A stretch of 64,000 nt of DNA. Source: Rhizophagus irregularis. Lineage: Eukaryota. Positions 2,390 to 64,000 of the stretch are shown here, piece by piece. The DNA is taken from contig NC_089434.1 in NCBI RefSeq assembly GCF_026210795.1, forward strand, positions 4,030,001 through 4,094,000. The letters run 5' to 3'. How positions within the stretch are numbered: position 1 is the stretch's first letter; the number at the start of each line of letters is the position of its first letter. Under the pieces are notes generated by a model that saw only the letters and a list, made by a program, of their open reading frames with translations, was not told the DNA's origin and ran no database searches. Position numbers and translations under genes: made by a program.

Positions 2390-3315
2390 TTTATTTCCTA
2401 ATGCTTAATTTTTTTTTCGATACAGAAAATTTTGCGCTTTATTAGAAGAACAACGAGTTCAATATTGAAATTATCTGACGATTATTAAAATTTTAGGCGA
2501 TTTTATAGATATTTTTTTTTTACGCAAGAACGAATTAATAATTGAGTGTCCTCAAGTACTTAAAGCAAAAATTTCTTTTTCTTTTTTAAAAAGATTATTA
2601 TTCTCCTTTTGTTATTAAGCTGCTTAATAAAAATAATTGAAATTTTTTTAAGAATTATCATAAAAGTTCCCTCAAAACTAAAATAATTATCCGCAGTACT
2701 ACGTAGCAATTGTATGACAATATCATGTAGTCAATATTAACTTCCTTAATTACATTATAAATACATTTTTTATTAAAATTTATTTGTTTATTTATTAAAG
2801 TGGCATATGCAAATATACAAATAAATAAATGGCATCAAAAAGTTGTAGCGTAAAATTAAAAAATTTTTTTGTTCCGCAGAAGCACATCACGTGGTTTTTA
2901 ATCTTCTACTCAAAGATATTTAATCCATATACTCTTTTTCTCCATCAATGATTAGTAACTTTTAATTTATTTTTTTACGTAGATTTAACTCAGTGAAATT
3001 TAATTGTATCAGATAATACACACATATATATGTACAGTATTGTTAATTTTTGGGCGCAGTATTATATTAAATTTACTACGGTCCAAATGACATTAAACTA
3101 TTGGTTAAACGGCTTTTCATATTAATTAATTAGGGGACTGCGGAAGATATTAATTATTTATTAAAGTGGTTTATGTAAATATACAAATAAATAAATGATA
3201 TCAAAAAGTTGTAGTGTAAAATTAAAAAAATTTTTTTGTTCCGCATAAGCACATCACGTGGTTTTTAATCTTCTACTCAAAGATATTTAATCCATATATC
3301 TTTTCCTCTATCAAT
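2390..3315. repeat. Dispersed copy of the ~0.9-kb repeat family arrayed at 50960-55200 (left part; resumes at 18819)
   Basis: Shares blocks such as GTTCCGCAGAAGCACATCACGTGGTTTTTAATCTTCTACTCAAAG (2871, 3238) with the 51-55 kb array, including the ~365-bp internal duplication. Confidence 0.9.
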
Positions 3316-3697: not shown

Positions 3698-5512
3698 ATG
3701 TCTTTATCAAAACCTTTTCATTTTCCGGTGGGAAAAAATTCTTTCTTGGTCTCTATGAAAAATTTTCACGTGACAAAACCCAAAAGATCTGGTTATAACA
3801 AGATTTATGATAGCCACCGCTCAAAAAGTTTCTTTTTTGAGCTTGCTGATCCTAACAAAAACACCAATGAAATTCATCTGAAGATCCACACTAACGATTA
3901 TACAATGGATACTACCCCAATTAGGTTTCATTCCACAAGTATACTCCCTAATCACAAATACCAAATTAGTAAAATGCTCACACACTTTTTTTCTTTACAA
4001 GAAGTTCTGCCTCGTAGAATACAAACAAAATTTTTTGATTTTATTCGTTCAAAATTATTGGATAGAATTAATATAATACGATCACGTGGTTTTAGCACTA
4101 GCGATCGTAATAGATCTACAAAAACTTTTTTCAATTTTTCTTACAAAAAATATCGCTTTCATTTCGGTATTTATATTCCTTGTATACCTGATTGTACATC
4201 TGACTCTTTATCAGATAAACCTGCTTTTCTTACACAAACTCCAAAAACTCTTCATTTGTGTCAAATTCCATCCCCTTTCATTATGTCGCATCATCGACGT
4301 GCTTGCGTGATGCATCAGAAGAAATTTTTTAGCACAGAAGTGAATCATTTCTTGCGTCCTACTCAGAATTTAAGGAATGAAATGAATAACAACAAAAGTA
4401 CACATGCTTCGAATGTGTTCAACAAATGGCTTTCGCACACAAAAAAAGAAATCTATTCAAATCGGTTAGGAATTAAATATACCACCAGTTATTACGCTAA
4501 CGGTCATCAAAATATTTTTAAGAAAAACAACAAATATCGCTATATGTACAAAAAGCGTTATAATAATTTTAGTCACAATTATAGTATCAATAATTCAACG
4601 AAAAAGAAACAAGAGGCTCGCTTTAAGCGGAATTGTACTCGTATCTACAACAAGAATAACAAATTACGAATACTAAATGATCGACAAAAACTTAGGTCGG
4701 CTGTTCGCCACAGATTTCTCACTTCAATATCGCAATATATAGATAAACCGGTCACCCATCTTCGATATTCAAACAAGAGAAGAAGTATCAAAAAATCAGA
4801 TTATAATTTTAATGTTCCATTTTTTTCTTTTAAAAAGAAAGTACCCCCTATTAGGAGAACAAATCATGTTATCTATGATTTTACTTCTAGTTATAATTAT
4901 GTACCTCGATCTCAGAAATCTTCTAGCCTCTATATTGATGATGTAGCTTCAACGACTACTTTCTGTAAAGATATCATTTATCCTCTTCCTCCTGATATGG
5001 ATCCTGTTCCTGATAATATTGATATTCCAAACGAACTTCGCCCATATATACCTGATGGACCAATATATATGTTGGATCCTTCATCAAACAAAAAGAATAA
5101 GAAAAAAGTTAAACCCCCAACATACACTTATTGCATCCCTGGATCACGTTTGTGGTTTGATTACTTACGAAAGAACATTAAAAACGGTATTTTACCCTTT
5201 CGAGACTTTAGGGTTAACACCTCTAGTCCTATTTCCACCCACCCTATTTCAGATAGTTCGTCACTTAGTGATTCTATTTCACGCAACAACAATAATTTAC
5301 AACAACACAATGACCTTTTAAATTTACAACAACACATTATTGAAAACAATAAACGTCAATGGAACGTCATCAATACACAACTTGATAATGTTATCATTCA
5401 AGATTCTCAAAACACTTCTAATCAACATTCAGTTCACAAAAAACCTAAACGAACTTATTCCAGTTACCTTGCTGACTCCCTGGATGAAGGTTTTACCTCT
5501 GCTCGATATTAA
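3698..5512 (+). CDS. 604-aa basic (K/R/H-rich) protein of unknown function carried by the non-LTR element
   Basis: Intact intronless ORF; no recognisable RT, endonuclease or RdRp motifs; Cys/His cluster near aa 162-206. Confidence 0.75.
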   Translation: MSLSKPFHFPVGKNSFLVSMKNFHVTKPKRSGYNKIYDSHRSKSFFFELADPNKNTNEIHLKIHTNDYTMDTTPIRFHSTSILPNHKYQISKMLTHFFSLQEVLPRRIQTKFFDFIRSKLLDRINIIRSRGFSTSDRNRSTKTFFNFSYKKYRFHFGIYIPCIPDCTSDSLSDKPAFLTQTPKTLHLCQIPSPFIMSHHRRACVMHQKKFFSTEVNHFLRPTQNLRNEMNNNKSTHASNVFNKWLSHTKKEIYSNRLGIKYTTSYYANGHQNIFKKNNKYRYMYKKRYNNFSHNYSINNSTKKKQEARFKRNCTRIYNKNNKLRILNDRQKLRSAVRHRFLTSISQYIDKPVTHLRYSNKRRSIKKSDYNFNVPFFSFKKKVPPIRRTNHVIYDFTSSYNYVPRSQKSSSLYIDDVASTTTFCKDIIYPLPPDMDPVPDNIDIPNELRPYIPDGPIYMLDPSSNKKNKKKVKPPTYTYCIPGSRLWFDYLRKNIKNGILPFRDFRVNTSSPISTHPISDSSSLSDSISRNNNNLQQHNDLLNLQQHIIENNKRQWNVINTQLDNVIIQDSQNTSNQHSVHKKPKRTYSSYLADSLDEGFTSARY

Positions 5513-5825
5513 TTTTTGTAATGAGCCAGGATTATCTACAGAACAACTCAAAATTAGTGTGAACCATTCCACCTCTAACAGTATTTACAGGTGGTGGCTT
5601 TTTTAGCCAAAAGAAAAATACGGATCATGAGAACACAACCTTATTTACTAAATATCAATGCGAATCCTCAATGATCGTTCGCACGTAGTTGCTTTTAATA
5701 GTCTATACTACTCTAGAACTATTGATTTTCTATATATATAATTTTTTTTTTATTTTTAGGTTCTCTCGTTACGGATGGGTCTTTAGGTTTTATTTTTTTC
5801 TTTTCCCCATTCGAAGTATTAGCGT

Positions 5826-6512
5826 TGTCACCCACGTCTGCCACCCGTGGATAAACACATCTTTCTCATTTAACTTATTTCTCGTTACTTTGCTTGGTTT
5901 AGATTTTATTTTTCTTTTAACTTCTCGCTTTCTTTTCTCATATATCCGTAGTATTTATTCTCAATACTACTGCTCATTCATAATATTCCCAAAATATTAT
6001 GCTGCCTGTAATATTTATTCTTTCAAATATTACCATCTTATTTCTTATAAACTGCGAGAGTTCTCCTAACTTCTTATATTTCATACAATAAAACGAGAAT
6101 AACTCCTCTTACTTTACTTTTCTGGACTTAATAATAATATTAATTAATTCTCAAGCGTACAATGAGCATATTCAAGATAACTTTTAATAATTAATATTTA
6201 TTTTATTAAATTTGAGTCAAAACTGACTGCGGAATTCCTAACGAATCCCACCTATATTTATACATTTTTAAGAAAACTATTTCTACCACTTCTAACTTTT
6301 CTACTAATAAAAATTTAAGAACAATAAGAAAATAAAGATATATTATCATATGACTATCTTGTGACTAAACTAAACTAAACTATAAATATTATTTTATCGG
6401 TTAATTATTTATCCTTCGGCTAATTATTTATCCATCGGTTAATTATTTATCCTTGTTCTATTCGGTCTTTTATTCATCTGCTCACGTGATTATCCTGATT
6501 TCTCGGGTTACA
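5826..6512 (-). repeat. 3' LTR (687 bp)
   Basis: TGTCACCC...GGGTTACA; matches 17953-18638 apart from a 1-nt T indel seen by eye; contains 21-bp tandem repeats near 6395-6452. Confidence 0.97.
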
Positions 6513-6523
6513 GCTATCCCCCC
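6513..6523 (-). other. Polypurine tract
   Basis: Minus strand GGGGGGATAGC immediately before the 3' LTR. Confidence 0.7.
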
Positions 6524-6542: not shown

Positions 6543-7730
6543 TCAAATTCTAATTATAACTTCGAAACTTGACCTGTCTATATATTCCTTCAATAATTCT
6601 CCATTTACTGGCGTTTTCTGTATTCTTCCCTCCATAGTTTTAATTTTATAAGATCCTTTAGAAATTATTTCGTGTATATAATACGGTCCTTTCCATTTTT
6701 CTTCTAGTTTTCCAGACCATTGTTTTTCTTTTGCTGCATCATAATATAGTACTTTATCCCCTATTTGAAAGTTCTTTTTCGTCTTATATTTCTTATCATG
6801 ATATTTCTTCTGTTTTTCTTGAGATTTTTCTATATTCTCTCTGGCTCGGCTTCTAATGTTCGGTAGATCTTCCATTAAACTATTAATCCTTTGTGTTATT
6901 GTAACATTTTCATCTTCCATATTTAGTAATGTCCTCATTTCCCTTCCATATATTAGATATCCTGGTTTTAACTTGGTCGAATCATTCTTCTTTGTTCTAT
7001 ATGCAAATAAGACTCCTGGTATTCTTAAATCCCAATCTTTAATGTTACTCAATTTTGCTAATGATTCACATAGTGTCTTATTGAACCTTTCTATTAATCC
7101 ATTCGTCTTCGGGTGATAAGGTGTCGAAAAATTGTGTTTTATCTGAAATTCCCTCATTAATAATTCTACTAATTTGTTATTAAAATGACTTCCCCTATCA
7201 CTTAATATCTTCTTTGGACATCCGTGTCTACATATTATATCTTCATAAATGAATCTTGCAATTTCTTTAGCATCTGCTGTTTCTAAGGCTCTAGCTTCTG
7301 GCCATTTCGTAAAATAATCCATTGCCGTAACTATGTATCTATTATTTCTTTCTGTTATTGGTAACGGTCCCACAACATCTATTCCAATCTGATAAAATGG
7401 TTCTTTAACTTTTATTACATTTAATTCGTGTTTTCCAATCGGTTTTCCTCTTCTTTGACAACTATTGCATGATTTAACATATATTTCTATATCTTGTCTC
7501 ATTCCATTCCAGTAATATTTCTCTCTAATCCTTTCATATGTTGCATCTATTCCAAAATGTCCAGATAATTCATGGTCGTGTGCAATATACATTAATCCTT
7601 CAAACTCATATTTTCTTATTACTCTCAATTCTCTATTATCCTTTATTCTATATAACAAACCATCTTTCATCCTATAGTGTTGTTTATTATCTATATTTTT
7701 AATTATCTCATTATATTTATCTTCTTCCAT
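6543..7730 (-). CDS. Integrase as a stand-alone ORF (HHCC zinc finger, DDE core, GPY/F C-terminal module)
   Basis: HDHELSGH...CNSC; IGIDVVG, ILSDRGSHF, NGLIERFN; KLEEKWKGPY; in-frame TAA two codons upstream of its ATG. Confidence 0.95.
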   Translation of the reverse strand: MEEDKYNEIIKNIDNKQHYRMKDGLLYRIKDNRELRVIRKYEFEGLMYIAHDHELSGHFGIDATYERIREKYYWNGMRQDIEIYVKSCNSCQRRGKPIGKHELNVIKVKEPFYQIGIDVVGPLPITERNNRYIVTAMDYFTKWPEARALETADAKEIARFIYEDIICRHGCPKKILSDRGSHFNNKLVELLMREFQIKHNFSTPYHPKTNGLIERFNKTLCESLAKLSNIKDWDLRIPGVLFAYRTKKNDSTKLKPGYLIYGREMRTLLNMEDENVTITQRINSLMEDLPNIRSRARENIEKSQEKQKKYHDKKYKTKKNFQIGDKVLYYDAAKEKQWSGKLEEKWKGPYYIHEIISKGSYKIKTMEGRIQKTPVNGELLKEYIDRSSFEVIIRI

Positions 7731-7869
7731 TAATTAGTATATCTTCTATTTCTTCTTCAAAAGGTAAAATAAACCTAATATTTTTATCTTCAAATAACAC
7801 GCAGTGATAATTCGTATTCCTGTGTATGATGTAAATATATATTCCTATTCCAATATTTTCAGTAGTCAT
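7717..7869 (-). CDS. Small 50-aa ORF bridging the RT-kinase ORF and integrase (not in the ORF track)
   Basis: MTTENIGIGIYIYIIHRNTNYHCVLFEDKNIRFILPFEEEIEDILINGRR*; starts 2 nt after the RT-kinase stop and overlaps the INT ATG. Confidence 0.5.
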   Translation of the reverse strand: MTTENIGIGIYIYIIHRNTNYHCVLFEDKNIRFILPFEEEIEDILINGRR

Positions 7870-7871
7870 TT

Positions 7872-10193
7872 TTATTTTTCCAATAGCTTTTCTACTCGTT
7901 TATATACTTTTTTCCAACTTTTGTCATCGTTTTTAATTTTAATTCTCCTATATTTTCCTTTATTCTCATAAATATTCTGATGCTCTTTAAACATTTTCAC
8001 CATGTCCATGTATTCCTCTTCGTTCAACGTTTCATATGATGTTTTATGTCCTTCATTACTTTTCTTAGTTTCTCTTCCAATATAATTATTCCAACATTCT
8101 TTATTCTCTAAGAAAATTATTATCGCATTATCTATAATATCTTTATATTTAAATATCTCTTTCTCCATTTTATGATTCCCATATGGAGTAATATATCCTC
8201 TGTCAAAACTTTTGGTCTTTTGATAAAAGTATTCACAATATGGTGACTTATCCAGTATTATAATGTCTTCATCTGTAAATTCAACTATTCTCCTATTGAT
8301 TTCTTCTACAACTTGTTTTCTAAATAACCATTCATATTCTTTTGAAGGTTCCTCAAATCTCTTATCATCATTTCTTCTTCTTTTAAACTTATTAAATATT
8401 ATTTTTAAATCATCCTTTTCTTTTAATCGTTTAATTATATTTTCTACTATGGTGGATTTCCCTACACCATCAACCCCATCAACAATAATAATCTGTGGTT
8501 TACTCTTCCTTCCTAATTTCTTTAATAATTCTTTTTCTGTCTTTTCTTCTAAGTTCAGTAATATTGCTTCTTTATCATTAAAATATTTCATATCATCCCA
8601 TTTTCCCTTAAATCTTCTAGCGTCGAACCATTCATTTCCTGATCTAACATATCTCAGCTTTTTCTCTTTATTATTTTCCATTTTCATTATTTCTTGACTT
8701 AAGTCTCCAGGGTCCCTTTTTATAACTTTCTCTTCAAATTCTAGTCTTGATAACGCATCTGCATTCTTATTTTCTTTACCGCTTCTATGTATTACTTCAA
8801 AGTCATATTGTTGTAACTCCATTACCCATCTTGCTCTTCTTCCTGTAGGTACTTTAGCATTCATTAATCCTTTTAACGCAGCATGATCCGTTATAACCGT
8901 AAATTTTCTTCCTGCTAAGAACTTATGGAAATACTTGATCCCCCAGAATATTGCTAAACATTCTAATTCTGTTATTGCATAATTCTTTTCTGCTCCCACT
9001 AAACTTCTACTAGCATAGGCGATAACAAATTCTTTATTTTCTTCATTTTTCTGAGATAATACTGCTCCTAACCCTTCTCCTGACGCGTCTGTAATCAATA
9101 TAAACTCCTTTTCGAAATTAGGGTGATCTAATACTGGTTTTTCCATTAATCTTATTTTTAATTCTTCAAATGCTTCCTGCTGTTTCTCTGTCCATTCAAA
9201 TGGTACATCCTTTTTAACTAAGTGATATAAAGGTTTTGCTATTTTCGCAAAATTCTTTATAAATCTTCTATAATATGAGCACAATCCTAAAAATGATCTC
9301 ACTTGTGTAACAGTTTCTGGTATCTTTATTTCTTTAATCTTCTCCACTTTCTTTGCATCTGGTTTCAAACTATCTCTTCCAACTATATGTCCTAAAAATT
9401 CTATATTTCGTTCACCGAACTTACATTTCTTCAATTTCACAATCAAGTTGTTTTTCTTTAATTCGTTCAACACTTTATCGATATGTTCCACATGTTCTTC
9501 AAAATTTTTTGAATAAATCATTATATCATCTAGATATACTATTACAAATTCTCCAATATATTCTTTTAATATCTCATCCATTATCCTCTGAAATGTTCCT
9601 GGTGCATTCTTTAAACCAAATGGCATAACATTATATTCATATAATCCTTGTGAACATATAAATGCTGTCTTTTCTTTATCTTCTTCTACCATTTCTACTT
9701 GATGATACCCTGCCGCTAGATCCAAACTCGTAAACCATCTCGCTGTTCTATATTTTTCTAATAATTCGTCTATTCTTGGTAATGGGTATGCATCCGACTT
9801 AGTTATATTATTCAATTTCCTATAATCAATGCAAAATCTATAATTTCCTGTTTTCTTTCCTGCTAGTGTTACTGGAGACGCCCATGGACTCCATGACTTT
9901 CTAATTTTCCCCATTTTTAATAACTGTTCAACTTCTTTCTTTATAAACTTTCCCTTTTCCTCGGTCTCTTTATACCTCTTCTGTGCTATTGGTTCTTGAC
10001 CTTCTTTAATTTCTATTTTATGTCTAACAGTGTCTACCCTTCCTAATTTTTCTCCATCGTATTCAAATATCTCTTCATAACTTTTGATTAGCTTTATTAT
10101 ACCATCCTTTCTTTTACCTGTTACTTCTCCCAAATTTATCTTTTTATCGAACTTTTCCCATTTAGTTTCATTTTTATCATTTTCATTTATCAT
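7872..10193 (-). CDS. Reverse transcriptase - RNase H fused to a C-terminal thymidylate/deoxynucleoside kinase-like P-loop domain
   Basis: RT: SPWASP, RFCIDYR, MPFGLKNAP, YLDD; RNase H: TDAS, ELECL, TDH, NADALSR; then IIIVDGVDGVGKST and IILDKSPYCEYFYQ. Confidence 0.93.
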   Translation of the reverse strand: MINENDKNETKWEKFDKKINLGEVTGKRKDGIIKLIKSYEEIFEYDGEKLGRVDTVRHKIEIKEGQEPIAQKRYKETEEKGKFIKKEVEQLLKMGKIRKSWSPWASPVTLAGKKTGNYRFCIDYRKLNNITKSDAYPLPRIDELLEKYRTARWFTSLDLAAGYHQVEMVEEDKEKTAFICSQGLYEYNVMPFGLKNAPGTFQRIMDEILKEYIGEFVIVYLDDIMIYSKNFEEHVEHIDKVLNELKKNNLIVKLKKCKFGERNIEFLGHIVGRDSLKPDAKKVEKIKEIKIPETVTQVRSFLGLCSYYRRFIKNFAKIAKPLYHLVKKDVPFEWTEKQQEAFEELKIRLMEKPVLDHPNFEKEFILITDASGEGLGAVLSQKNEENKEFVIAYASRSLVGAEKNYAITELECLAIFWGIKYFHKFLAGRKFTVITDHAALKGLMNAKVPTGRRARWVMELQQYDFEVIHRSGKENKNADALSRLEFEEKVIKRDPGDLSQEIMKMENNKEKKLRYVRSGNEWFDARRFKGKWDDMKYFNDKEAILLNLEEKTEKELLKKLGRKSKPQIIIVDGVDGVGKSTIVENIIKRLKEKDDLKIIFNKFKRRRNDDKRFEEPSKEYEWLFRKQVVEEINRRIVEFTDEDIIILDKSPYCEYFYQKTKSFDRGYITPYGNHKMEKEIFKYKDIIDNAIIIFLENKECWNNYIGRETKKSNEGHKTSYETLNEEEYMDMVKMFKEHQNIYENKGKYRRIKIKNDDKSWKKVYKRVEKLLEK

Positions 10194-10277
10194 TTTAAAA
10201 TTTATTTATTATTTTATTTCTTATTATTATTTCAACAATTTTACATTTTGGGACAATTTTAGCCCTTTTTATATAAT

Positions 10278-10913
10278 TCAATCCTCATTTTCACTAGATA
10301 TTTCACTATCATCAGACGAGCTTTCTTCACTGGAACTTTCACTATCTTCTTGAGACTCATTTTCTTTTACTACTTCCTTTTCTTTTATTGCTTCTTTTAC
10401 TGTATATAACTTCTTTCCTTCTTCTTGTTCATAATCAGATTCTCCTGATTCACTTTCATAGTCGGATTCTTCTGACTCTTCCACTTGTTTAATATACCAC
10501 ACTGGTATGTCTATTATTTCTTCATCATTTTCTAATTCCAATATCTTTTCTTTATAGTTGATATTTGCATTCCATTTATCCAATAAATCATTTCCTATAA
10601 TCATTTCTTTTTGCTTTGAATCTATTACATCTAATGTTACTGGTAATACTAATTCTTTATAAACTTTTATTTCTGTATTCACTTTTCCTAATGAAGCAAT
10701 CTTTCCTCCATCTGCTAATGTACACGTAATATTACTTTTTCCTTTTATTGGTATATTTAACTCTTTTCTTAATTTCTCTGTTATTACACTTATTGCTGCC
10801 CCTGAATCTATTACAACTTCGATTTCCTTATCATTTATTATAAACTGTGTTTTCATTGCCGTTGTAACTTCTTTTTCTCCACTTATTTCAGTCTTTTTCA
10901 CCTCCGAGTGTAG
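10278..10913 (-). CDS. Retropepsin aspartic protease, in frame with Gag after a single UGA
   Basis: VVIDSGAAISVI and MIIGNDLL motifs; acidic tail; frame continuous with Gag across TGA-CTA. Confidence 0.9.
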   Translation of the reverse strand, partial: LHSEVKKTEISGEKEVTTAMKTQFIINDKEIEVVIDSGAAISVITEKLRKELNIPIKGKSNITCTLADGGKIASLGKVNTEIKVYKELVLPVTLDVIDSKQKEMIIGNDLLDKWNANINYKEKILELENDEEIIDIPVWYIKQVEESEESDYESESGESDYEQEEGKKLYTVKEAIKEKEVVKENESQEDSESSSEESSSDDSEISSENED

Positions 10914-13900
10914 TCACTCTGTTTTATCTCCTTTTCTTATCATTTTCTTTATCATTCTTCCTTGTTGTTCCACAATATTAAGTAGATTTCCATAATCTAC
11001 TGGATCTTTTGATTTAACTCCTATAATTTTATCTTCTCTTGGTCTACGTTTTCCCCCTGCTTCTTTCCATCTATTTATTCCTTCCATTGTGTCATAATAT
11101 TCTCCTCTCTTTTTACTCCATTTATATCTTTTTGGGATATTCGTATTGTCTGGTCCTATTGGTCTATTATACATTGGTTGCTCATCCTCCACATATTCTT
11201 CCATCGGAACTTCTCTTCTATTTCTATATTTATGTTCTTCTTTCCCTCTTTCCTCAATCTCTTTGTCTAAATTTGGCTTTCCAAAATTTTTCCATCCTTG
11301 TTTAGGATTTATTCTATTACTTCTCCTTCTTTCTTGTACTGGGTTATCTTTTTCATACAAATCACGATTGTAGTTATACAATTGTGGATCATCATATTCA
11401 TTATTTTCATAGTCGTAATCATCATCTGATTCTTCATTTTCGTAGTCATAATCTTCTTCATGGTCTTCTATATCCATTAAATTAACTCTTCTCTCATTTC
11501 TTCTGATATTATTTCCTAATGGACATCTAGTCGCAAAATGACCTCTTCTATTACACCTAAAACAAGTTATTTCATCATAATTAATTGGTGCTCCATTATT
11601 TCTTCTCTGATTCAATTGGTTTCTATTCCCATTATTATTCAACTCCCTTTCCATATTTCGTACTTGTTTTTCCAATTTGGCAATTCTCATTTTCTCTAAT
11701 TTTTCCACTAAATCGTCCTCATAATCTTCCTTTAACGGTTTGTTAAACTTATTTTCTTGTTCATTTCTTTTATCACTGTTTTGTCTAATATCTTGAATAT
11801 TATTATTCTGAATATTATTCTGATTTAACAAACTTTGATTCATCATACTTTGTATCATCATTTGATTTCCTGTCTCTATAATTTTAGCTCTTTCAACAGC
11901 TGCATCCAACGTCGCTGGTGCTGTTTCCATTACTCTTGATATCATAACTGGATTCAGTCCCTGAATAAAATAGTTAATTTTATACATTTCTCCTAAATCA
12001 TTAACTCCTGGTGCTATTTTTCTTATTAACTTTCTGAATCTGCTTGCATATGCTCCTACTTTCTCATTCATTTCTTGTTTAATCGTTTGTAACTCTCTAA
12101 TCCATTGATTCTTTCTAACATCGCTTGCATAATGTTCCTTCAGTATTTTAGTAAAATCATTATTCCCATGGTTATGACCATTGTCCTCCCATCTTTGTAT
12201 ATCTCCTTGTTTGTTTTCATACCAATCAGCTGCTTCTCCTCGCATACATGCTGCTGCTTTTCTTATTTTATCTATTTGATTAGCTCCTTCTTGATAACCA
12301 TTTGCGCTCCAAACAACCTCAAAATCTCTAATCCACTCATATGGATCTTGATCTCCTCCATAATATAATGGTAAATCTCCTACTTTCGCTGCTCTATTCA
12401 CTGGTCCTGTCAAATTTCCAACTCTTGTTTCAACTTGATTAATTCTTCCAAATATTGTATCTGCTGGTGGAACTAAAGCATTCCAATCATTTCCTATATC
12501 ATGTCCTAATATTATATTTCCAAACGTTCTCAAATCTTCTCTGATGTGATTTCTTTCTGCCATATTCAATAATATATTCTCTTGAAATAAATCCTGTAAA
12601 TTATAATCAGATAGTTCACTTTCTGTATCAGAATTTTCAATATCAGAATCCTTAATATTTAACGAATTATTCGAATCTGAATTTTGACTTAAGCCAAAAT
12701 CTTCCGTATTTATAATATTTTCCTCATTGTTTTCAATTCTATTTTCATCAAAGTCTTCAGAATTTTCTTCCCAAATCTCATATTCTTCTGGATCTAATAT
12801 CTCTCCAATCTTTTCCGAATCATCTGAATTATCATTTTCTTCTTCACTTTCTTCAATCTCGAATTTCCTTAAGTACTCATCCAATATTCTCTTTATTTCC
12901 CTTTCTGATTCATTTTTATATTCTTGAAATTTTCTTATAAAGTCTGCACTTAATATATCAACATCTCTATATCCCATACTTATTAATCTTAATAATTCTC
13001 CATCAGAAACTTCAATTTTTAAAACTTTAATTAAGTTCCTTAGCTGTTCTAATCTTTTCTCTATTTCCGTTTCATCATCCGATTTATTCTCGTCTTCTAA
13101 ATTTTCTGGTCCTTTTTCATAACAACTTTTACATATCTTTTCTATAAATTCTTTATTGTATTCTACCGCTTCTATTGCTTCTTTCTTTAATATTATTTTA
13201 TTGCACATTGGGCATTCTATCGTATACATATAATGCCATATTCTTAACTCTTCTTCTATTCTTTCGTCATCTAATTCTTCAATAGTTTTATAAAAACTCA
13301 TAAATTCTTTAGTCTTCATTATTTCATATTCCACTCTGAAATTTATTATTCGCCTTATCTCTTCAGTATCAATTTCATAACCATTTTCTAACCAATAATT
13401 TCTGTATATTCTTTCTATATGTTCATCTCCTTCATTCGAACTTGATTCTCCTAAATCATCTGAATTTTCCAGTTCTCCTACATCACTTTGTTCTTCAACA
13501 AAACCTTTTGCTTCTACAATTTTCTTTATTATCTTATCTGTTATGTCGTCATCTATCCATGGTTTCGGGTATTTATTTCCATCCCACCATTGATATGTTA
13601 TACTTTTCTGAAACTTTCTGACTTTCTCTCTATTCTCTTCTTCTACTATATTTTCTTCTAAATGCAATATTTCCTTGAAATATCTCATTGTGCTATATCC
13701 TTTGTTTTTAATGGTTATTGGTTCTGTTTTTTCTAACCATTCCTCAAATTTTGCAAATCTCATATCTAATTCATCATCTTCTATAATATATCTATATGTT
13801 AACAATTCCCTATTTCCTAATAAATTCTCTTCTGTTTGTTCATCTAATATAAGTTCATTATCTTCATTCAGTATGTAATGTTCACATATTACTTTTATTA

Positions 13901-14297
13901 CTGATATAATTCCTATTTTTCTGTAGTCCGGTTTATTTCTATACCTTATTGATCTTACGACTACATCCAACAGTTTTTCTCCTTCTTTTCTCATTCTCTC
14001 AAATTCTTTATTTCTTTTCTTTTTACTAGATGGATAATTTTCTTCCCCATCCTTTCTTGTTAGTATTATGTATTCCATTAATTTCATATACGTATTTCTG
14101 TTATAACTCATTGCTTCTAATATTACTTTTTGAAAAATTTTCCAAAATCTTTTAAACCAATCTTCTATCTTTATTTCATCAATACCATAACATTTCAGGC
14201 ATGAAGGATCTACTTGATATTCCTTCCTCGATTCATTATGTTTTTCTATTTCATGTTTATTTTTGATCTCTTCTAATTCATCGTATATTTCAGACAT
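10914..14297 (-). CDS. Gag with a ~575-aa acidic, CxxC-containing N-terminal extension
   Basis: Capsid-like LPLYYGGDQDPYEW...MRGEAADW...IKQEMNEKVGAYASRF...FIQGL; zinc knuckle CFRCNRRGHFATRC; N-terminal CLKC, CPMC and CKSC. Confidence 0.92.
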   Translation of the reverse strand: MSEIYDELEEIKNKHEIEKHNESRKEYQVDPSCLKCYGIDEIKIEDWFKRFWKIFQKVILEAMSYNRNTYMKLMEYIILTRKDGEENYPSSKKKRNKEFERMRKEGEKLLDVVVRSIRYRNKPDYRKIGIISVIKVICEHYILNEDNELILDEQTEENLLGNRELLTYRYIIEDDELDMRFAKFEEWLEKTEPITIKNKGYSTMRYFKEILHLEENIVEEENREKVRKFQKSITYQWWDGNKYPKPWIDDDITDKIIKKIVEAKGFVEEQSDVGELENSDDLGESSSNEGDEHIERIYRNYWLENGYEIDTEEIRRIINFRVEYEIMKTKEFMSFYKTIEELDDERIEEELRIWHYMYTIECPMCNKIILKKEAIEAVEYNKEFIEKICKSCYEKGPENLEDENKSDDETEIEKRLEQLRNLIKVLKIEVSDGELLRLISMGYRDVDILSADFIRKFQEYKNESEREIKRILDEYLRKFEIEESEEENDNSDDSEKIGEILDPEEYEIWEENSEDFDENRIENNEENIINTEDFGLSQNSDSNNSLNIKDSDIENSDTESELSDYNLQDLFQENILLNMAERNHIREDLRTFGNIILGHDIGNDWNALVPPADTIFGRINQVETRVGNLTGPVNRAAKVGDLPLYYGGDQDPYEWIRDFEVVWSANGYQEGANQIDKIRKAAACMRGEAADWYENKQGDIQRWEDNGHNHGNNDFTKILKEHYASDVRKNQWIRELQTIKQEMNEKVGAYASRFRKLIRKIAPGVNDLGEMYKINYFIQGLNPVMISRVMETAPATLDAAVERAKIIETGNQMMIQSMMNQSLLNQNNIQNNNIQDIRQNSDKRNEQENKFNKPLKEDYEDDLVEKLEKMRIAKLEKQVRNMERELNNNGNRNQLNQRRNNGAPINYDEITCFRCNRRGHFATRCPLGNNIRRNERRVNLMDIEDHEEDYDYENEESDDDYDYENNEYDDPQLYNYNRDLYEKDNPVQERRRSNRINPKQGWKNFGKPNLDKEIEERGKEEHKYRNRREVPMEEYVEDEQPMYNRPIGPDNTNIPKRYKWSKKRGEYYDTMEGINRWKEAGGKRRPREDKIIGVKSKDPVDYGNLLNIVEQQGRMIKKMIRKGDKTE

Positions 14298-14713
14298 CTT
14301 GATTTATTTTATTTACCTATTTACTTGCAAAATGATTTCATTTCATATTTCCCGTCTATTTATATTTTTATTCATATAGTATTTATTCGTTTATCATTTC
14401 AATCTTTATTTCTTTTATATTTTCATGTTTACAACTTTCTACTACATTTCTTTATTATATTTTATATTACATGGTATTCTATTACTTATAACTTGATATT
14501 CTTCTAACTTCATTAATTCTTAATTAGTTTAACGTCTTTCCGGACAACTATTTGTCCCTAAATTCTTATTATTTACATTTTTCCTGTATTTCCATCTTAA
14601 CCGCTTGATTTCTTCACGCTTATTATTCTTCTTATGATATTCTTTTATTCCACCTGTTATCTTCTAACGTCTTTTTGTATATTTATTTCATCCTTTAATA
14701 TTCATCTTATTCT

Positions 14714-15040
14714 TCAATTCCTATATTCTGTCTGTTCATAAATTTTCTGATTATTCCTGTATGCAGCTATTTTACATTCTCCCATTCGCAATATATTCCT
14801 ATTTTTGTGTTCACATCTTTCTTCATGTTCATTAAGATATTCCATTCTTTTTCGAAAGTATTCTTTACATAACATTTCTATTTTGTTTCTTAAACTTTCT
14901 TCGCTTTCTTCCCTGACTTCAAAATAATTAATTTCTTGTAACGTTACATTCTCTATTTTCTCGCAATATTTACATTTTACTTTACCGTCTATTCTAATAA
15001 AACCTTTTCCATTTATATTTTCAAATACCGTTGTTTCCAT
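14714..15040 (-). CDS. Accessory ORF (108 aa from ATG 15040), putative zinc-binding
   Basis: CKYC...HEERCEH; TATAAAAG 75 nt upstream. Confidence 0.6.
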   Translation of the reverse strand: METTVFENINGKGFIRIDGKVKCKYCEKIENVTLQEINYFEVREESEESLRNKIEMLCKEYFRKRMEYLNEHEERCEHKNRNILRMGECKIAAYRNNQKIYEQTEYRN

Positions 15041-15127
15041 TTCTCGTATTTTATTCAAAATTTCTCATTTATTATTATTTTATTTTGTCATTATTCATTT
15101 CCTCCTACTTTTATAATAATTGATTAC

Positions 15128-15388
15128 TCAGTTTCTATCATCACTCGAATATTTATCAATTATTCTAAATTTTAAATTCAACCATTTAATCTCATTTTTA
15201 TCCCAATCTGCAATACACATTCCTTCATTTTCAAACCATTGTAGCGCATTTCCTAACAAATGTGTCTTTGCAATCTTAAATATTCTTTTATCATCCTTAA
15301 TTCCTATTTTCGACAAATATTTCTCAACTTGATTCGTCCATTCTTTCGGATTTTCTCCTTTTATACCATAAAATATTGGTATTTCCAT
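15128..15388 (-). CDS. Accessory ORF: stand-alone 86-aa Gag capsid N-lobe-like protein
   Basis: IPIFYG...NPKEW...HLLGNALQWFEN parallels LPLYYG...DPYEW...CMRGEAADWYEN in the element's own Gag. Confidence 0.7.
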   Translation of the reverse strand: MEIPIFYGIKGENPKEWTNQVEKYLSKIGIKDDKRIFKIAKTHLLGNALQWFENEGMCIADWDKNEIKWLNLKFRIIDKYSSDDRN

Positions 15389-15519
15389 TTTAATCTCTCG
15401 TATTACTCCTTAAAATATATATACTTCATATTCTTTTCACGGTACAAATTTTGCCCTTTTTATAACTTTATTTTAAACATTTCAAGGTTCTCAGACTTTA
15501 ATCTCTATATTTTGACCTT

Positions 15520-16425
15520 TCATTCCTCTATTTCTTGTCCTCTTATAAGATCTTCCGCTATTTCTGTTATTTCTTTCTTAGTACAACTATCTACTGATGT
15601 AATATCACAATTACTTTCGAATACTCTTTTCTTTCCTATCTTATTAACTAATAAACAAACTTTTTCTGCTTTTTCCATCATTCTTTTTAATCCTTTTCTT
15701 GTTCTTACTACATCTGTTTCCAACATTTCCTTATATATCTTTTCTCGTTCCTCTTTATCTGTTCTCCTTTTTCTATTTTTCCCTTTTCGCTTATTAATTT
15801 CTTGTTCTAATCTTTCTTCAAACCTTTTTCCTAAATAATAATGTATTTCCAATAACATCTGATTATTCCTTCTCATTTTATGACATAATTGTAATAACGA
15901 TAGTCCTCCATTCTCCTTTTCTAACATTTCTTCGTCAATATCTTCCTTCTTATGTTTTAATCTAATCATTAAAACTTGGTAATTTTCTGATCTAACTATT
16001 TCTTCATTTTCTTCACTATCATCAGTTCCATTTTTCTCACTACTATTATCTTCTTCCTTTTCTCTAACCTTATCATTCTTGTCATCTATTTCCATTAATT
16101 CTGATCTTTCTTCATCAGCTATTCCATCATTATTTATTTCATCTATTACTATATTATCATTATCATTCTCATCATTTTCTATATTAAATTCTGACTCATC
16201 ATTAACATTCCTATTTCCTGAACTATTATCACTTTCTTCTATCATATCTTCATCAAGTTCAATTTTTTCTTCGTTAAATATTCTTTCAGTAACTATCTCG
16301 CATGTGACAATCCAATTCTTTAGTCTCATGTCATTTTCATCATAAAATTCCACTTCAATACAATCATTTAGTTTTTCTTCAACTTTTCTCAATTCTCCTT
16401 TCGATATTTTAATTTTTAATTTCAT
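15520..16425 (-). CDS. Accessory ORF, 301 aa, unknown function (acidic middle, basic helical C-terminus)
   Basis: Intact ORF with the same strand and composition as the other element ORFs; TATATATA ~70 nt upstream. Confidence 0.7.
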   Translation of the reverse strand: MKLKIKISKGELRKVEEKLNDCIEVEFYDENDMRLKNWIVTCEIVTERIFNEEKIELDEDMIEESDNSSGNRNVNDESEFNIENDENDNDNIVIDEINNDGIADEERSELMEIDDKNDKVREKEEDNSSEKNGTDDSEENEEIVRSENYQVLMIRLKHKKEDIDEEMLEKENGGLSLLQLCHKMRRNNQMLLEIHYYLGKRFEERLEQEINKRKGKNRKRRTDKEEREKIYKEMLETDVVRTRKGLKRMMEKAEKVCLLVNKIGKKRVFESNCDITSVDSCTKKEITEIAEDLIRGQEIEE

Positions 16426-17060
16426 GATTTATTATTTCTTATTTATTTATTATTTTATTAGTCAGTCGTCCCTGCCCAGGGGCAACTATATATATACTCT
16501 TAATTTGATATTTTCCTATTATTCTATTGGTTATTCATTCTTATTGTTCCATCAACCGTTCTCAGTATTTCATTAAATTCTTTATTTCTTTTATAATTCT
16601 TTATTTCTCAACTTCAATCTCCTTTTCTCTAATTATTTCTTTCGCTCTTTAATTCCTTTCTACTTTCTTTCTTAACTTTTCTCTTACTGTGCCTTGTACT
16701 ACTCACATGATCTGTATTACTCACGTGACTTGCCGCAGTATAATCTCATTTTATTCACTCACATTTGTAATTGAACTGAAGATCATAAGCCCAATTGTTC
16801 AAACACTTACCATTATACCAACAACATATAGTTGTTACATTTAAACCTTGGATTCATATTTAATTTTTATAACTCCGTTCTTACAACATCAAATATTCAA
16901 CAATACTATTTCTTTTTATTTCATACTTGATACAATTCTTTTATTATACTTCTCATAATCATTAACATCATTCTTTCTTTTATTATAGTTGGATAGCCAC
17001 AGATTTTTAAGCGATCAACTTACTAAAATTTCTGTTGACAAACGCCCCTGGTGACACAAC

Positions 17061-17105
<45 letters not shown>

Positions 17106-17931
17106 TCTCTTACTTGACCAGCAAGTTTCTTCAAAAATAAATTAATATGAGGGTTTAACACCGCTTTACCCACAACGTACAATAATAATAATGGGGGTTT
17201 CTTACAGTTTAACCCGCAACTTACAATCTAGAGGGTTTATTACAGCTTAACCCACAACTTACAATCTTATAGTGTTTTAAAGGTTCCCACATAACCACTA
17301 GTGTTTTTCTTGTAAGGTTCCCACGCAACCTCTTGGGTTTATAGTTCACCCGCAACTTTTGCATTATTTCTTTTATTAGATTTACTTTCTTACCGTGAAA
17401 TCTCAATACGGTCTTATTTTCTTTTATAGTCAATTATCGTGACTAACTTAACTCCAATAATTCTTATAGAATTATCTCCTTTTATTTCCAATAACCTATA
17501 CTAGGCTTATCTCTACCTTCATATCGAAGTATGATAGTTTCTAGGTTTGTCATTAACAACTTTTTATTTCTTATTTATCAGGCTTATACATCGTCTAGTG
17601 TATTTCTTTCATTTCATGTTAGTCCTTTTTCATACTAACATACACTTCTTGTTAGTCCTTTTTCATACTAACATATACTTCTTTCAACTTCTTATAATAA
17701 ACTTCATAATTTCCTGATAAATCTCCTAATCACAAGCAATACACGCTTTGATTATCCTTCATTACTTGTACTTCTTTTATTTCTCATTGTACACTTAATA
17801 ATTTTTTTTTTTTTTTTTTTTTTATACTCAAGTCCAGATCCTCTAGGAATACCACACAGGTACCTAACTATATGAAGATAGTCAGAATGATCATATTTCA
17901 TTTCTTTTAATCTTTATTGATCATTTCCTTT

Positions 17932-17949
17932 CTCGGAAGCATTGCACCA
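17932..17949 (-). other. Primer-binding site
   Basis: TGGTGCAATGCTTCC begins 3 nt after the 5' LTR; complementary to a tRNA 3' end ...GCACCA (tRNA-Gly-like; identity inferred). Confidence 0.7.
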
Positions 17950-17952
17950 AAT

Positions 17953-18638
17953 TGTCACCCACGTCTGCCACCCGTGGATAAACACATCTTTCTCATTTAA
18001 CTTATTTCTCGTTACTTTGCTTGGTTTAGATTTTATTTTTCTTTTAACTTCTCGCTTTCTTTCTCATATATCCGTAGTATTTATTCTCAATACTACTGCT
18101 CATTCATAATATTCCCAAAATATTATGCTGCCTGTAATATTTATTCTTTCAAATATTACCATCTTATTTCTTATAAACTGCGAGAGTTCTCCTAACTTCT
18201 TATATTTCATACAATAAAACGAGAATAACTCCTCTTACTTTACTTTTCTGGACTTAATAATAATATTAATTAATTCTCAAGCGTACAATGAGCATATTCA
18301 AGATAACTTTTAATAATTAATATTTATTTTATTAAATTTGAGTCAAAACTGACTGCGGAATTCCTAACGAATCCCACCTATATTTATACATTTTTAAGAA
18401 AACTATTTCTACCACTTCTAACTTTTCTACTAATAAAAATTTAAGAACAATAAGAAAATAAAGATATATTATCATATGACTATCTTGTGACTAAACTAAA
18501 CTAAACTATAAATATTATTTTATCGGTTAATTATTTATCCTTCGGCTAATTATTTATCCATCGGTTAATTATTTATCCTTGTTCTATTCGGTCTTTTATT
18601 CATCTGCTCACGTGATTATCCTGATTTCTCGGGTTACA
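17953..18638 (-). repeat. 5' LTR (686 bp)
   Basis: Near-identical to 5826-6512; minus-strand TATAAATA near 18388 and downstream AATAAA. Confidence 0.97.
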
Positions 18639-18818: not shown

Positions 18819-19115
18819 ATCTTTTCCTCTATCAATGATTAATAACTTTTAATTTATTTTTTTACGTAGATTTAACTTAGTGAAATTTAATTGTATCAGA
18901 TAATACACACATATATATGTACAGTATTGTTAATTTTTGGGCGCAGTATTTTATTAAATTTACTGCGGTCTGAAATGACCTTAAATTATTGGTTAAACGG
19001 CTTTTCATATTGATTAATTAGGGGACTGCGGTCAGGAATGACGTTAAACTATAATTTCTACTTTAATGGTTATTTTACTTTATCTTTTTTATTGGTATAT
19101 TATTTTATTTAGGAT
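18819..19115. repeat. Continuation of the interrupted ~0.9-kb repeat copy
   Basis: CTTTTCCTCTATCAATGATTAATAAC...GGGGACTGCGGTCAGGAATGACG matches the 51-55 kb array. Confidence 0.9.
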
Positions 19116-62055: not shown

Positions 62056-62128
62056 GGGAAAAAAAAACTCTCTCCTGCATAAATCGATTTTCATAAGAAT
62101 CCGCAGCAAAATAAAATTTACTAGAAAT

Positions 62129-62586
62129 ATGGGTATAACACCGTCAAGAGAAGACTTCGTAGCCCTAGAAGGATACGCAAAAAAAGCGAAGAAGAGCGCA
62201 GAGCAATAATACAAAACGCGGGAATGGAAATAACCGATAACGACAAAGAGATAGCACAATTTTTGGGTTCAGAAGACGAAATACTAGGTTGTTTTATTAG
62301 GGGAATAATCACGATATGCTTAAGACACTTTAACAACCAAAGAACAAAAGAATTTAACGAATACATAGAAGATTACAAGACAGCAACAAACGATATGATA
62401 CAACAAAAAACTGTAGAAATGAACAAATGGGCCCGACTAAAAGAAGAACAATGGAACATCAAAGAAGAATATTATTTCAAAAATACATCGATAAAAGCGC
62501 ACCAAATACAAACCGAACTAGGAGCGGTAGATAACGAAGACAGGATAAGGATAGAAAAACAGGAAAAAAGAGAAAATTATGAATGA
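62129..62586 (+). CDS. Extra upstream ORF of the LINE (~152 aa if one A is restored in the A-run at ~62179-62185)
   Basis: MGITPSREDFVALEGYAKK/SEEERRAIIQNAGMEITDNDKEIAQFLG...; its stop overlaps the next start (ATGAATGA). Confidence 0.55.
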
Positions 62587-64000
62587 ATGTAGAAAGATAA
62601 CTATGAACAACCTCGACGAGGACAGCGACAAAGACGAAGAGATAATTCAACATACGTGGGAAATAGAAAGCAACACACCCAGTGAAGAATCATGGGACGA
62701 AGGGAAAATGAACCAAAAATACCACGTTTACAACAATGCATCACACCAGACAAATGAAAACACCAATAATACTTCGAGAATGCAGGTCGAGAATAAAAAT
62801 AGAAATTTTACAAAATCAAGAGACCAATCATTAACAATGGCGATCACTGCCGATCACAACATGGAAGAAAAACCTAATAAAAGTAAAGAGTCCGTGCATC
62901 AACCAAAATCAGAAAAAGATCTGAAATATTTCGCAGGACTTTTTACAGTCCAAATAAGGGATAGACAAACTGACCAATCGATAATAGAATATCTCAACAC
63001 CAATAAAATTTTAGAATATCACGTGAACACACTAGGTAGAACTACTCATCACGGCAACGAATACACGTACTTAGGCTTTTTCACAGAAGCAGCGAAAAAC
63101 GATTTTATAAACGACGGAAGAATATTGGGAACGATAGGAAAATTCAGAGATCTAGAATGGTTAAATAAATTGAACAAAACAATCATCATATCAGCAACCG
63201 GAATAGACGGAGAAAACACAGATATCAACGAAGTTATCCAAGCAATAGAAGACAAATTAGGTAAACTCAAAAACGTAACACAAAAAACAGGAAATGGAAA
63301 ATGGATAAGTATGAAACTAGAAATGGACATTAAATGTACAGAGGACGAACTATTTAACACCTGGGGAGTCCTAGTCAAAAACAAAATGATAAAAATCGAA
63401 CCAATGAATTACAAACATCATATAACCAAACAACGAGGAAGAATTATGGCGGAAATACTCGATATACTTAACGAAATCGACGAAACAACATTCTCAAAAA
63501 TACTTAAAACTACCAACGCAAGATATTGGTTCAAAACTAACAACAGGATGAAAGGAACATACAACATGAAGATATACTTCAACAACGATGAAGACAGAAA
63601 ACAAGCAATTAACAAAAAAATCAAAATCGACGGAAAGATTTTTACTTGGTTTTTTCGGACTGGACCGGGAAGACAGAATAATTTTCGTAATGAAAGAAGA
63701 AATGATAATGGATTTGGCAAACGATTTCAACAAGAAATGTACGATGGAAGAAAGACTGGAAGATCCAGATGCAATATATGCAAAAGGAATAACCACATCA
63801 CAGACGAATGTTATTTCAACAATAGAAACAGAACACATGAAAACAGAAGAAACTGGAACGACAACTGGAATGAAACATATAGACATAGAAAAGGTAGATA
63901 CGACAATGAAGGAAAGTTCAGATATGACACGCAACAACAACAATTCAGTGATCACGACGACAACAGATACAACGCCTACACCAACAGAGGAAAACAAATA
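62579..64000 (+). CDS. LINE ORF1-like nucleic-acid-binding protein (partial; missed by the ORF track because it has no stop)
   Basis: Open frame MNECRKITMNNLDED...YTYLGFFTE...YNMKIYFNNDEDRKQAI...CNICKRNNHITDEC. Confidence 0.8.
   Translation, partial: MNECRKITMNNLDEDSDKDEEIIQHTWEIESNTPSEESWDEGKMNQKYHVYNNASHQTNENTNNTSRMQVENKNRNFTKSRDQSLTMAITADHNMEEKPNKSKESVHQPKSEKDLKYFAGLFTVQIRDRQTDQSIIEYLNTNKILEYHVNTLGRTTHHGNEYTYLGFFTEAAKNDFINDGRILGTIGKFRDLEWLNKLNKTIIISATGIDGENTDINEVIQAIEDKLGKLKNVTQKTGNGKWISMKLEMDIKCTEDELFNTWGVLVKNKMIKIEPMNYKHHITKQRGRIMAEILDILNEIDETTFSKILKTTNARYWFKTNNRMKGTYNMKIYFNNDEDRKQAINKKIKIDGKIFTWFFRTGPGRQNNFRNERRNDNGFGKRFQQEMYDGRKTGRSRCNICKRNNHITDECYFNNRNRTHENRRNWNDNWNETYRHRKGRYDNEGKFRYDTQQQQFSDHDDNRYNAYTNRGKQI

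Follow-up and report, generated by a model that had tools for sequence, protein, structure and literature searches.

Fusion to Gag is how long terminal repeat (LTR) retrotransposons and most retroviruses bring their enzymes into particles at the right ratio; to our knowledge foamy viruses are the exception, and these still make a Pol precursor. As far as the excerpted texts cited here and below go, the Metaviridae are defined by their reverse transcriptase (RT) and domain order and usually make a single Pol polyprotein (PMC3248453), and foamy virus Pol is made apart from Gag, from a spliced mRNA, as a precursor of protease (PR), RT, RNase H (RH) and integrase (IN) that is packaged through genomic RNA (PMC7828637). 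Ogre and Bianca elements have a GAG-PROT open reading frame (ORF) apart from the RT ORF, the gap in Ogre being a partly spliced intron with a mean length of 274 bp (PMC6317226). Here we describe an LTR retrotransposon of Rhizophagus irregularis whose Pol enzymes are encoded in split frames and are likely made as separate proteins. The element spans 12.8 kb on the minus strand (18638 to 5826) of a 64,000-nt stretch of contig NC_089434.1 (positions 4,030,001 to 4,094,000), hereafter the window, to which all coordinates refer.

By its RT, domain order and termini, the element is a Ty3/Gypsy LTR retrotransposon of Rhizophagus. Eight ORFs, all on the minus strand, were found at the sizes given by a first-pass annotation of the sequence (301, 86, 108, 1127 (Gag), 192 (PR, from its ATG), 773, 50 and 395 aa), with Pfam matches to a Ty3 capsid, the zinc knuckle of Gag, an aspartic protease, RT, RNase H and integrase in the Gag-PR-RT-RH-IN order of the Metaviridae. 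The 5′ LTR (17953..18638; 686 nt, TG...CA) and 3′ LTR (5826..6512; 687 nt), which that annotation had put at about 1 nt apart, differ by one indel. A 4-bp target duplication, ACGC, flanks the element on both sides (18642-18639 ahead of the 5′ LTR), a TGG-start primer-binding site lies 3 nt past the 5′ LTR (17932..17949), and a polypurine tract adjoins the 3′ LTR (6513..6523); a tRNA gene search of the window found none. Because the LTRs are one indel apart, the target duplication is present and the catalytic motifs are whole, the insertion is recent and the element young and intact. Named homologs of RT, Gag and the accessory ORFs come from R. irregularis, R. clarus, R. diaphanus and Glomus cerebriforme; viral contigs searched for RT and kinase relatives, and prokaryote genomes searched for kinase relatives, yielded none. 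Genetic code 4 and, as another possibility, an endobacterial origin were weighed and dropped, since the 773 codons of the RT ORF contain no TGA and LTRs and a primer-binding site are present.

The foamy-virus or complex-virus flavour previously ascribed to the element found no support in the comparison. Among solved structures its RT matches Ty3 best (E 7e-111), followed by 8r0s (2e-72), against 7e-33 to 1e-29 for foamy and Pr125Pol entries, and foamy Pol is itself still a precursor. No membrane-spanning stretch was found in any of the eight ORFs (top 19-residue hydropathy 1.17; at most 0.68 in the accessory ORFs), so the element has no env; the Pfam scan likewise returned no Env family.

The RT-RNase H ORF, which also encodes a C-terminal P-loop kinase (7872..10193; 773 aa), begins at its own ATG behind an 84-nt non-coding spacer (10194..10277). 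This spacer contains six in-frame stops and, at 10275-10263, TATATAAAAAGGG; the PR and RT frames do not overlap. Sister copies were compared piecewise, through contigs of public runs, annotated proteins and metagenome loci; for this junction, contigs of four public runs were compared over 10060-10560, one run having no cover of the PR stop, and the following figures are those among the matches listed. All four contigs that cover the PR stop (three runs) have TAA there in place of TGA, a 1-nt insertion occurs in the spacer of at least two sister contigs, and on one contig (10060-10316) 9 of 13 substitutions fall in the spacer and stop. The in-frame TAA five codons 5′ of the RT ATG, cited by the first-pass annotation as a barrier to a polyprotein, is present in the window, but the contig just mentioned has lost it together with the next stop, so that the two stops nearest the RT ATG are gone and three further upstream carry no listed change (frames assigned by hand). 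The conclusion drawn from that TAA and the one ahead of IN, that no PR-RT-IN polyprotein can form by simple readthrough or frameshift, nevertheless stands for this subfamily, given the length of the spacer, its six stops and the indel among copies.

On the protein side, 16 RT sequences picked from the matches, four of them metagenome ORF calls, start with a Met that lies 6-13 residues ahead of a shared KF motif. A Met just ahead of this motif is kept over 66-99% identity, and the motif itself is conserved even in continuous polyproteins. The ORF ends are common to sister copies, with an RT of 773 aa, an IN of 395 aa (the length of 7 of the 15 listed IN cluster members) and a PR of 192 aa on 8 contigs. 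The PR/RT split is thus established in the window's subfamily and probable in other subfamilies, and we regard split frames in the DNA of the window's subfamily as very likely.

Integrase is encoded apart from RT as well. Its ORF (6543..7730; 395 aa, own ATG) contains an H2C2 finger, D118-D178-E214 and a GPY motif, ends 47 residues past GPY with no chromodomain, the mark of chromoviruses, at E 0.1, and is preceded by the in-frame TAA, two codons 5′ of its ATG, reported earlier. Between RT-kinase and IN lies a 50-aa ORF (7717..7869) that starts 2 nt past the RT stop and overlaps the IN ORF by 14 nt at its own stop. The kinase was found in 15 of 69 candidate metagenome stretches, of which 14 hold the kinase end and together with the window make up the junction set. 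In all 14 loci the kinase ORF stops at the kinase end and never runs into integrase, and the integrase start, visible in 10 of the 15 metagenome loci, is always behind a stop. Relative to the kinase stop, and with the window given first, the following ATG lies at +2, +38, +2, -8, +3, -4, +33, -11, -4, -4, -1, +2, -19, -22 and -1 nt; the distances between small ORF and IN are -14, +8, -14, +46, -8, +32 and +32 nt; two loci, L004 and L014, look damaged. AUGA, which occurs three times at the kinase stop, UAAUG, which occurs twice, and tight stop/start arrangements of the AUGnxUGA type are among the forms listed for coupled termination-reinitiation (PMC5972666), and the spacing associated with that process, a stop and start within about 14 nt, is found at 11 of 15 kinase-end junctions and 4 of 7 small ORF-IN junctions.

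What occupies the position ahead of integrase differs between loci. The 50-aa ORF, present in the window and five loci, is under purifying selection, judged by its nonsynonymous (pN) and synonymous (pS) differences (pN 0.06-0.22 vs pS 0.42-0.60, five comparisons). The same slot holds an 81-aa coiled coil in L004 and L012, a 139-aa F-box protein in L013 (above the Pfam cut-off, with related ORFs in L014 and L015) and a 33-aa ORF in L007, and is empty in L005, L008, L010 and L011. The frame relation of kinase to IN varies with the locus, and the ORF in between is often unrelated. The F-box ORFs, from a distant subfamily, lie at L013:670-1089, L015:335-766 and L014:945-1128.

Among the long relatives compared, the best 120 of 7671, those with at least 50% RT identity (n = 71) have a protease in 65 cases and an integrase in 3, whereas 36 of the 49 below 50% have an integrase. 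Our RT-RH tree (FastTree, 64 chosen sequences with redundant or partial matches left out, no named reference clades) places the element's RT among Gypsy polyproteins. The kinase clade forms one branch (support 1.0) with a kinase-less Rhizophagus family that has a continuous Gag-PR-RT-RH ORF, and this branch is nested among metagenome Gag-PR-RT-RH ORFs with or without a Cys/His-rich tail and without integrase; P0192, which has an integrase, also falls among these. ORF ends are kept in relatives down to 54% kinase identity. The simplest order on these sequences would be that integrase split off first, the kinase was then gained, and Gag/PR and PR/RT split later, a stepwise course that fits the distribution of integrase among relatives. 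A sister clade (P0115, P0126, P0140, P0162, P0183 and relatives) consists of Gag-PR-RT-RH ORFs with a tail of 200-400 aa that is acidic and Cys/His-rich; the tail matches no Pfam family, and no integrase was found in these ORFs.

The junction between Gag and PR is of another kind. Gag (10914..14297; 1127 aa) comprises an N-terminal extension of about 580 aa, the Ty3 capsid and a CCHC knuckle; the extension is family-specific and common to 43 proteins, and its weak model (pLDDT 63, pTM 0.37) matched no fold (Foldseek best E 1.0; best Z 5.1). The protease (10278..10913; DSG, an acidic tail, its own TGA stop, and an ATG-initiated part at 10856-10278) had been listed as a separate gene, but no stop interrupts its frame over the 19 codons that follow the Gag stop, and it lies in frame behind that single TGA CTA, so PR is probably not free-standing. 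The 13 bases at the Gag stop, TGACTACACTCGG (10904..10916), are repeated exactly in L011, a metagenome locus with a kinase of 61-63% identity and a Gag end unrelated to that of the window. High readthrough is known for the motif UGA CUA G (PMC12233894), in which the seventh base is G where the element has C. The identity of these 13 bases despite unrelated Gag ends, together with the motif, makes it likely that Gag-PR is produced by UGA readthrough; no stable RNA structure was found 3′ of the Gag stop.

The kinase (about 7875-8519) carries GVDGVGKST and DKSPY. Its P-loop, GxGK[ST], and DKSPY are invariant in 12 aligned sequences, and pN of 0.06-0.26 vs pS of 0.44-0.80 (11 comparisons) indicates that the domain is under purifying selection. 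Pfam gave a match to Thymidylate_kin below the cut-off (E 1.2e-4). A structural model (pLDDT 70) has thymidylate kinases as its top PDB matches (best E 7e-6, TM about 0.5), and the fold search also matches viral deoxynucleoside kinase/thymidylate kinase (dNK/TMK) proteins; in a sequence search against solved structures nothing fell below E 0.07, the placement coming from the fold search only. We therefore describe the domain after RNase H as a predicted TMK/dNK-fold kinase. No archaeal-type extra RNase H, a trait of the Ogre/Tat group, was found in the element, where only RT_RNaseH matches occur. A profile search of 1.84 billion representatives returned only 60 matches, which beyond the element family are NUDIX-kinase proteins on metagenome contigs followed by weak TMK/dNK matches. 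The NUDIX-kinase proteins P0260 and P0264 are the nearest outside relatives of the kinase, and P0180 and P0182 are related Gypsy ORFs with a NUDIX domain before the protease; the two pairs suggest repeated capture of nucleotide-pool enzymes.

Upstream of Gag, a 1.5-kb leader (16426..17931) with more than 30 ATGs and A-runs, the long ones at 17062-17100 and 17803-17823 on the sense strand, precedes three small ORFs. ORF301 (15520..16425), acidic and coiled, is 301-308 aa long in sister copies and belongs to no Pfam family, its Atlas neighbours being Mucoromycota clusters without names; ORF108 (14714..15040), with a CxxC, is 104-108 aa long in sister copies. ORF86 (15128..15388) encodes, as a stand-alone protein, another copy of the N-terminal portion of the capsid domain; against Gag residues 641-728 of the same element it shows 31% identity (E 7e-6). 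Gag-derived restriction factors exist, for instance Ty1 p22, and ORF86 recalls these. Of the "at least four" accessory ORFs proposed at first, three (301, 108 and 50 aa) are conserved among other copies, and ORF86 is the one that was not found elsewhere. No accessory ORF resembles a known transactivator in Pfam or the Atlas.

Each of the five ORFs led by a spacer or the leader (301, 86, 108, Gag and RT) has a TATAWAW string starting 67-82 nt before its ATG. The box at 16496-16488 lies 69-71 nt before ORF301, and those of ORF86, ORF108, Gag and RT start at 15464 (-76), 15115 (-75), 14364 (-67) and 10275; PR and IN have none within 130 nt upstream. Among dinucleotide shuffles, 3 of 20,000 place five such strings within 13 nt of each other, and 5% have five anywhere. 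A TATA-like string in the kinase end was rejected because it does not occur in all relatives, and a hairpin adjoining the RT TATA box is not conserved, with three changes in sister copies. In L011, several CGCTATATAAA-like boxes are found at 5700-5966, 5′ of an ORF like the Gag N-terminal extension. From four RNA runs labelled as the same species came 123, 110, 114 and 24 reads, too few to judge splicing and in many cases derived from diverged copies. The only region with notable RNA depth is 16376-16732, where reads of three runs show a 54-nt duplication and 13 extra letters, from a variant leader copy. A joint of 10023 to 10297 seen in two reads of one run, with five foreign letters, does not preserve the reading frame by count and was disregarded.

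From the ORF layout and its conservation, the selection on kinase and 50-aa ORF, and the kinase fold, we infer the following steps of expression, packaging and kinase activity. Gag-protease would arise by UGA readthrough, RT-RNase H-kinase would likely be made from an internal TATA promoter, with translation starting at the ORF's own AUG, and stop-restart translation behind RT-kinase would likely supply the small-ORF product and integrase. Separate reading frames make it likely that the enzymes are separate proteins, which would need another route into the particle, and packaging of RT and IN in trans would be the natural inference, via genomic RNA or the long Gag N-terminal extension. Free RT and integrase would need no protease cleavage for release, and the fused kinase may top up deoxynucleoside triphosphate (dNTP) precursors for reverse transcription. 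On balance, we lean towards this combination of internal promoters and stop-restart with packaging in trans. A wider proposal is more tentative, and we think it somewhat less likely than not: that a lineage in arbuscular mycorrhizal fungi gave up polyproteins for a multi-promoter, operon-like genome, with free RT and integrase drawn into the capsid through a novel mechanism, an RT with its own kinase, a capsid-fragment ORF regulating copy number or assembly, and a coupled pre-integrase slot capturing cargo such as an F-box.

Several observations weigh against internal promoters and stop-restart. The TATA spacing test was framed after the pattern had been seen, and the spacers are AT-rich; the host genes of the window give no clear TATA spacing for calibration (seven starts of six genes: a single TATA at -75, boxes between -88 and -95 in one gene, and none in four). 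The four RNA runs contain neither start sites nor clean intron joints, at 24-123 reads each. At the junctions, 4 of 15 RT ends and 3 of 7 IN starts lie beyond 14 nt. Thymidylate kinases have DR where the element kinase has DKS, and kinase activity is therefore predicted only. The L011 PR-RT spacer is only 36 nt long and has no good TATA, the stretch of RT frame preceding its Met (IGSLGSEERETKK) is similar to the linker between PR and RT in R. clarus model P0085 (IVSLGSKRRETLKR), and nine NCBI gene models (P0013, P0018, P0019, P0023, P0024, P0025, P0030, P0034 and P0085) join PR to RT-kinase; because of these features, PR and RT may still be joined in some branches. At the other end, five NCBI gene models (P0009, P0012, P0015, P0033 and P0036) join kinase to IN, those inspected lacking the last kinase helix, as expected of predicted introns, and in L005 IN is in frame with the kinase behind one TGA. 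Tca2 offers a warning by analogy that such junctions may behave otherwise than they appear: it has a promoter at the gag/pol junction, yet its Pol is made from gag-pol RNA (PMC2194720).

A single long RNA could yield the same separate proteins if ribosomes reinitiated serially along it, in the manner of cauliflower mosaic virus (CaMV), perhaps with a TAV-like accessory ORF, the TATA-like boxes being incidental. The tightly spaced co-oriented ORFs and the long leader full of short ORFs would suit this, and reinitiation of the TAV type works across gaps of a few to 700 nt (PMC5972666). Five boxes at near-equal distances from their ATGs would then be coincidence, however, an arrangement as rare in shuffles as given above; the 1-12 extra ATGs in each spacer would divert scanning ribosomes, and a transactivator-like ORF is what the accessory set lacks. 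We consider this explanation unlikely. We also think it quite unlikely that some transcripts lose the PR-RT spacer as an intron of the Ogre/Bianca type, which would rebuild Gag-PR-RT and leave integrase alone separate. The nine kinase-clade models that join PR to RT speak for such an intron, but they differ from one another in the junctions used, and when single introns were enumerated, none had an in-frame acceptor upstream of +42 in RT. The window does offer one in-frame route, through CAG at +76 of RT; this sole in-frame YAG acceptor lacks a pyrimidine tract, and its use would cost RT its first 25 residues, the conserved KF motif included; the Met just ahead of that motif is kept among relatives, as given above.

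That ribosomal recoding, by frameshift, hop or readthrough, instead joins the frames into polyproteins is very unlikely. The likely Gag-PR readthrough is of this kind, TTTAAA TAG in L011 is directly followed by an open RT frame, and the L005 integrase lies in frame behind a single TGA. In the window's subfamily, however, recoding would have to bridge a PR-RT spacer in which the frames do not overlap, six in-frame stops occur and copies differ by a 1-nt indel, and the kinase-IN frame relation that varies by locus, often with an unrelated ORF between, argues the same at the second junction. That the window holds a decayed or non-autonomous copy whose small ORFs are noise is highly improbable and already largely refuted. 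Many annotated copies are truncated, RNA is scarce and ORF86 was not found in another copy; set against this are the near-identical LTRs, intact catalytic motifs, the stop-to-stop substitution at PR, purifying selection, and the ORF ends shared with relatives. The comparison with other copies supports the view of the first-pass annotation that the split is not decay, and shows it to be family-wide.

The rest of the window contains kinase, BTB/TLD-like and F-box-like genes, recognised by eye. A 604-aa intronless ORF on the plus strand (3698-5512), without a Pfam family and possibly part of another mobile element, ends about 310 nt before the 3′ LTR. Repeats that are 95-96% identical stand on both sides of the element (2933-3143 and 18820-19031), and 2788-2931 recurs at 3154-3298, so the region looks like nested insertions. 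A tandem array of 39-nt units occupies 50-337, and two plus-strand ORFs lie at 62125-64000, the second of which has a CCHC knuckle and runs off the window; the arrangement resembles ORF1 of a non-LTR element.

If the element does work with a free RT and a free integrase, an actively spreading retrotransposon would represent a second solution to enzyme packaging, and would offer a clean system for packaging in trans and for stop-restart translation on fungal nuclear mRNAs. Its relatives would supply a series of steps, with integrase split first and Gag/PR and PR/RT after it, and the RT-kinase fusion suggests that dNTP supply may limit transposition in these fungi. In practice, annotations of Rhizophagus genomes list elements like this one as host genes or give them predicted introns. 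As far as our literature search reached, the gene layout has no earlier description: the excerpts of PMC8647823, PMC11075540, PMC13465315, PMC3248453 and PMC6338049 do not describe it, and the search found neither the layout nor an RT-kinase fusion, its range ending before supplements, the transposable element libraries of PMC11075540 and PMC8647823, Repbase/Dfam and subscription papers, which may hold the family.

Compared with described systems, the element resembles Ty3/Gypsy elements such as yeast Ty3 in its LTRs, primer-binding site, polypurine tract, target duplication, Ty3-type capsid and knuckle, PR-RT-RH-IN order and RT. Unlike Ty3, it has no Pol polyprotein at the DNA level, PR, RT-RH and IN lying in three frames with their own stops, and it has a kinase fused to RNase H, the long Gag extension and four accessory ORFs. 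Caulimoviridae are not known to have an integrase or an LTR provirus, in contrast to the element with its integrase and LTRs, and Tca2 of Candida albicans is a Ty1/copia element. Tight or overlapping stop-start codons are shared with Caulimoviridae (CaMV), caliciviruses, influenza B, CHV1 and SART1 (PMC5972666, PMC2699510, excerpts), in contrast to which viruses and non-LTR elements ours is an integrase-bearing LTR element in which no upstream tethering signal or transactivator was found. With Tca2 it shares a UGA between gag and protease and, if the candidate promoters are real, something akin to the minor junction promoter of Tca2, whose pol is, in contrast, one ORF (PMC2194720). Foamy viruses, according to the excerpts, are alike in having enzymes unfused to Gag that need packaging in trans and an internal promoter, for which the element has a candidate; they differ in that PR is not on Gag, Pol is one precursor, Env is present and the RT is far more distant, so the comparison serves as an analogy for packaging in trans only. 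As in Ogre and Bianca, as excerpted, GAG-PROT is set apart from RT by a non-coding stretch, and Ogre-type elements have extra ORFs 5′ of gag; RT-RH-INT is one ORF in Ogre, whereas here IN is split off too and the spacer is 84 nt long, with a TATA box and no good acceptor. Finally, dUTPase has been captured in LTR elements of fungi, rotifers and planarians (PMC6431247, excerpt), which likewise brought a nucleotide-pool enzyme into pol, between PR and RT in those elements and, as a predicted TMK/dNK-fold kinase, after RNase H in ours.

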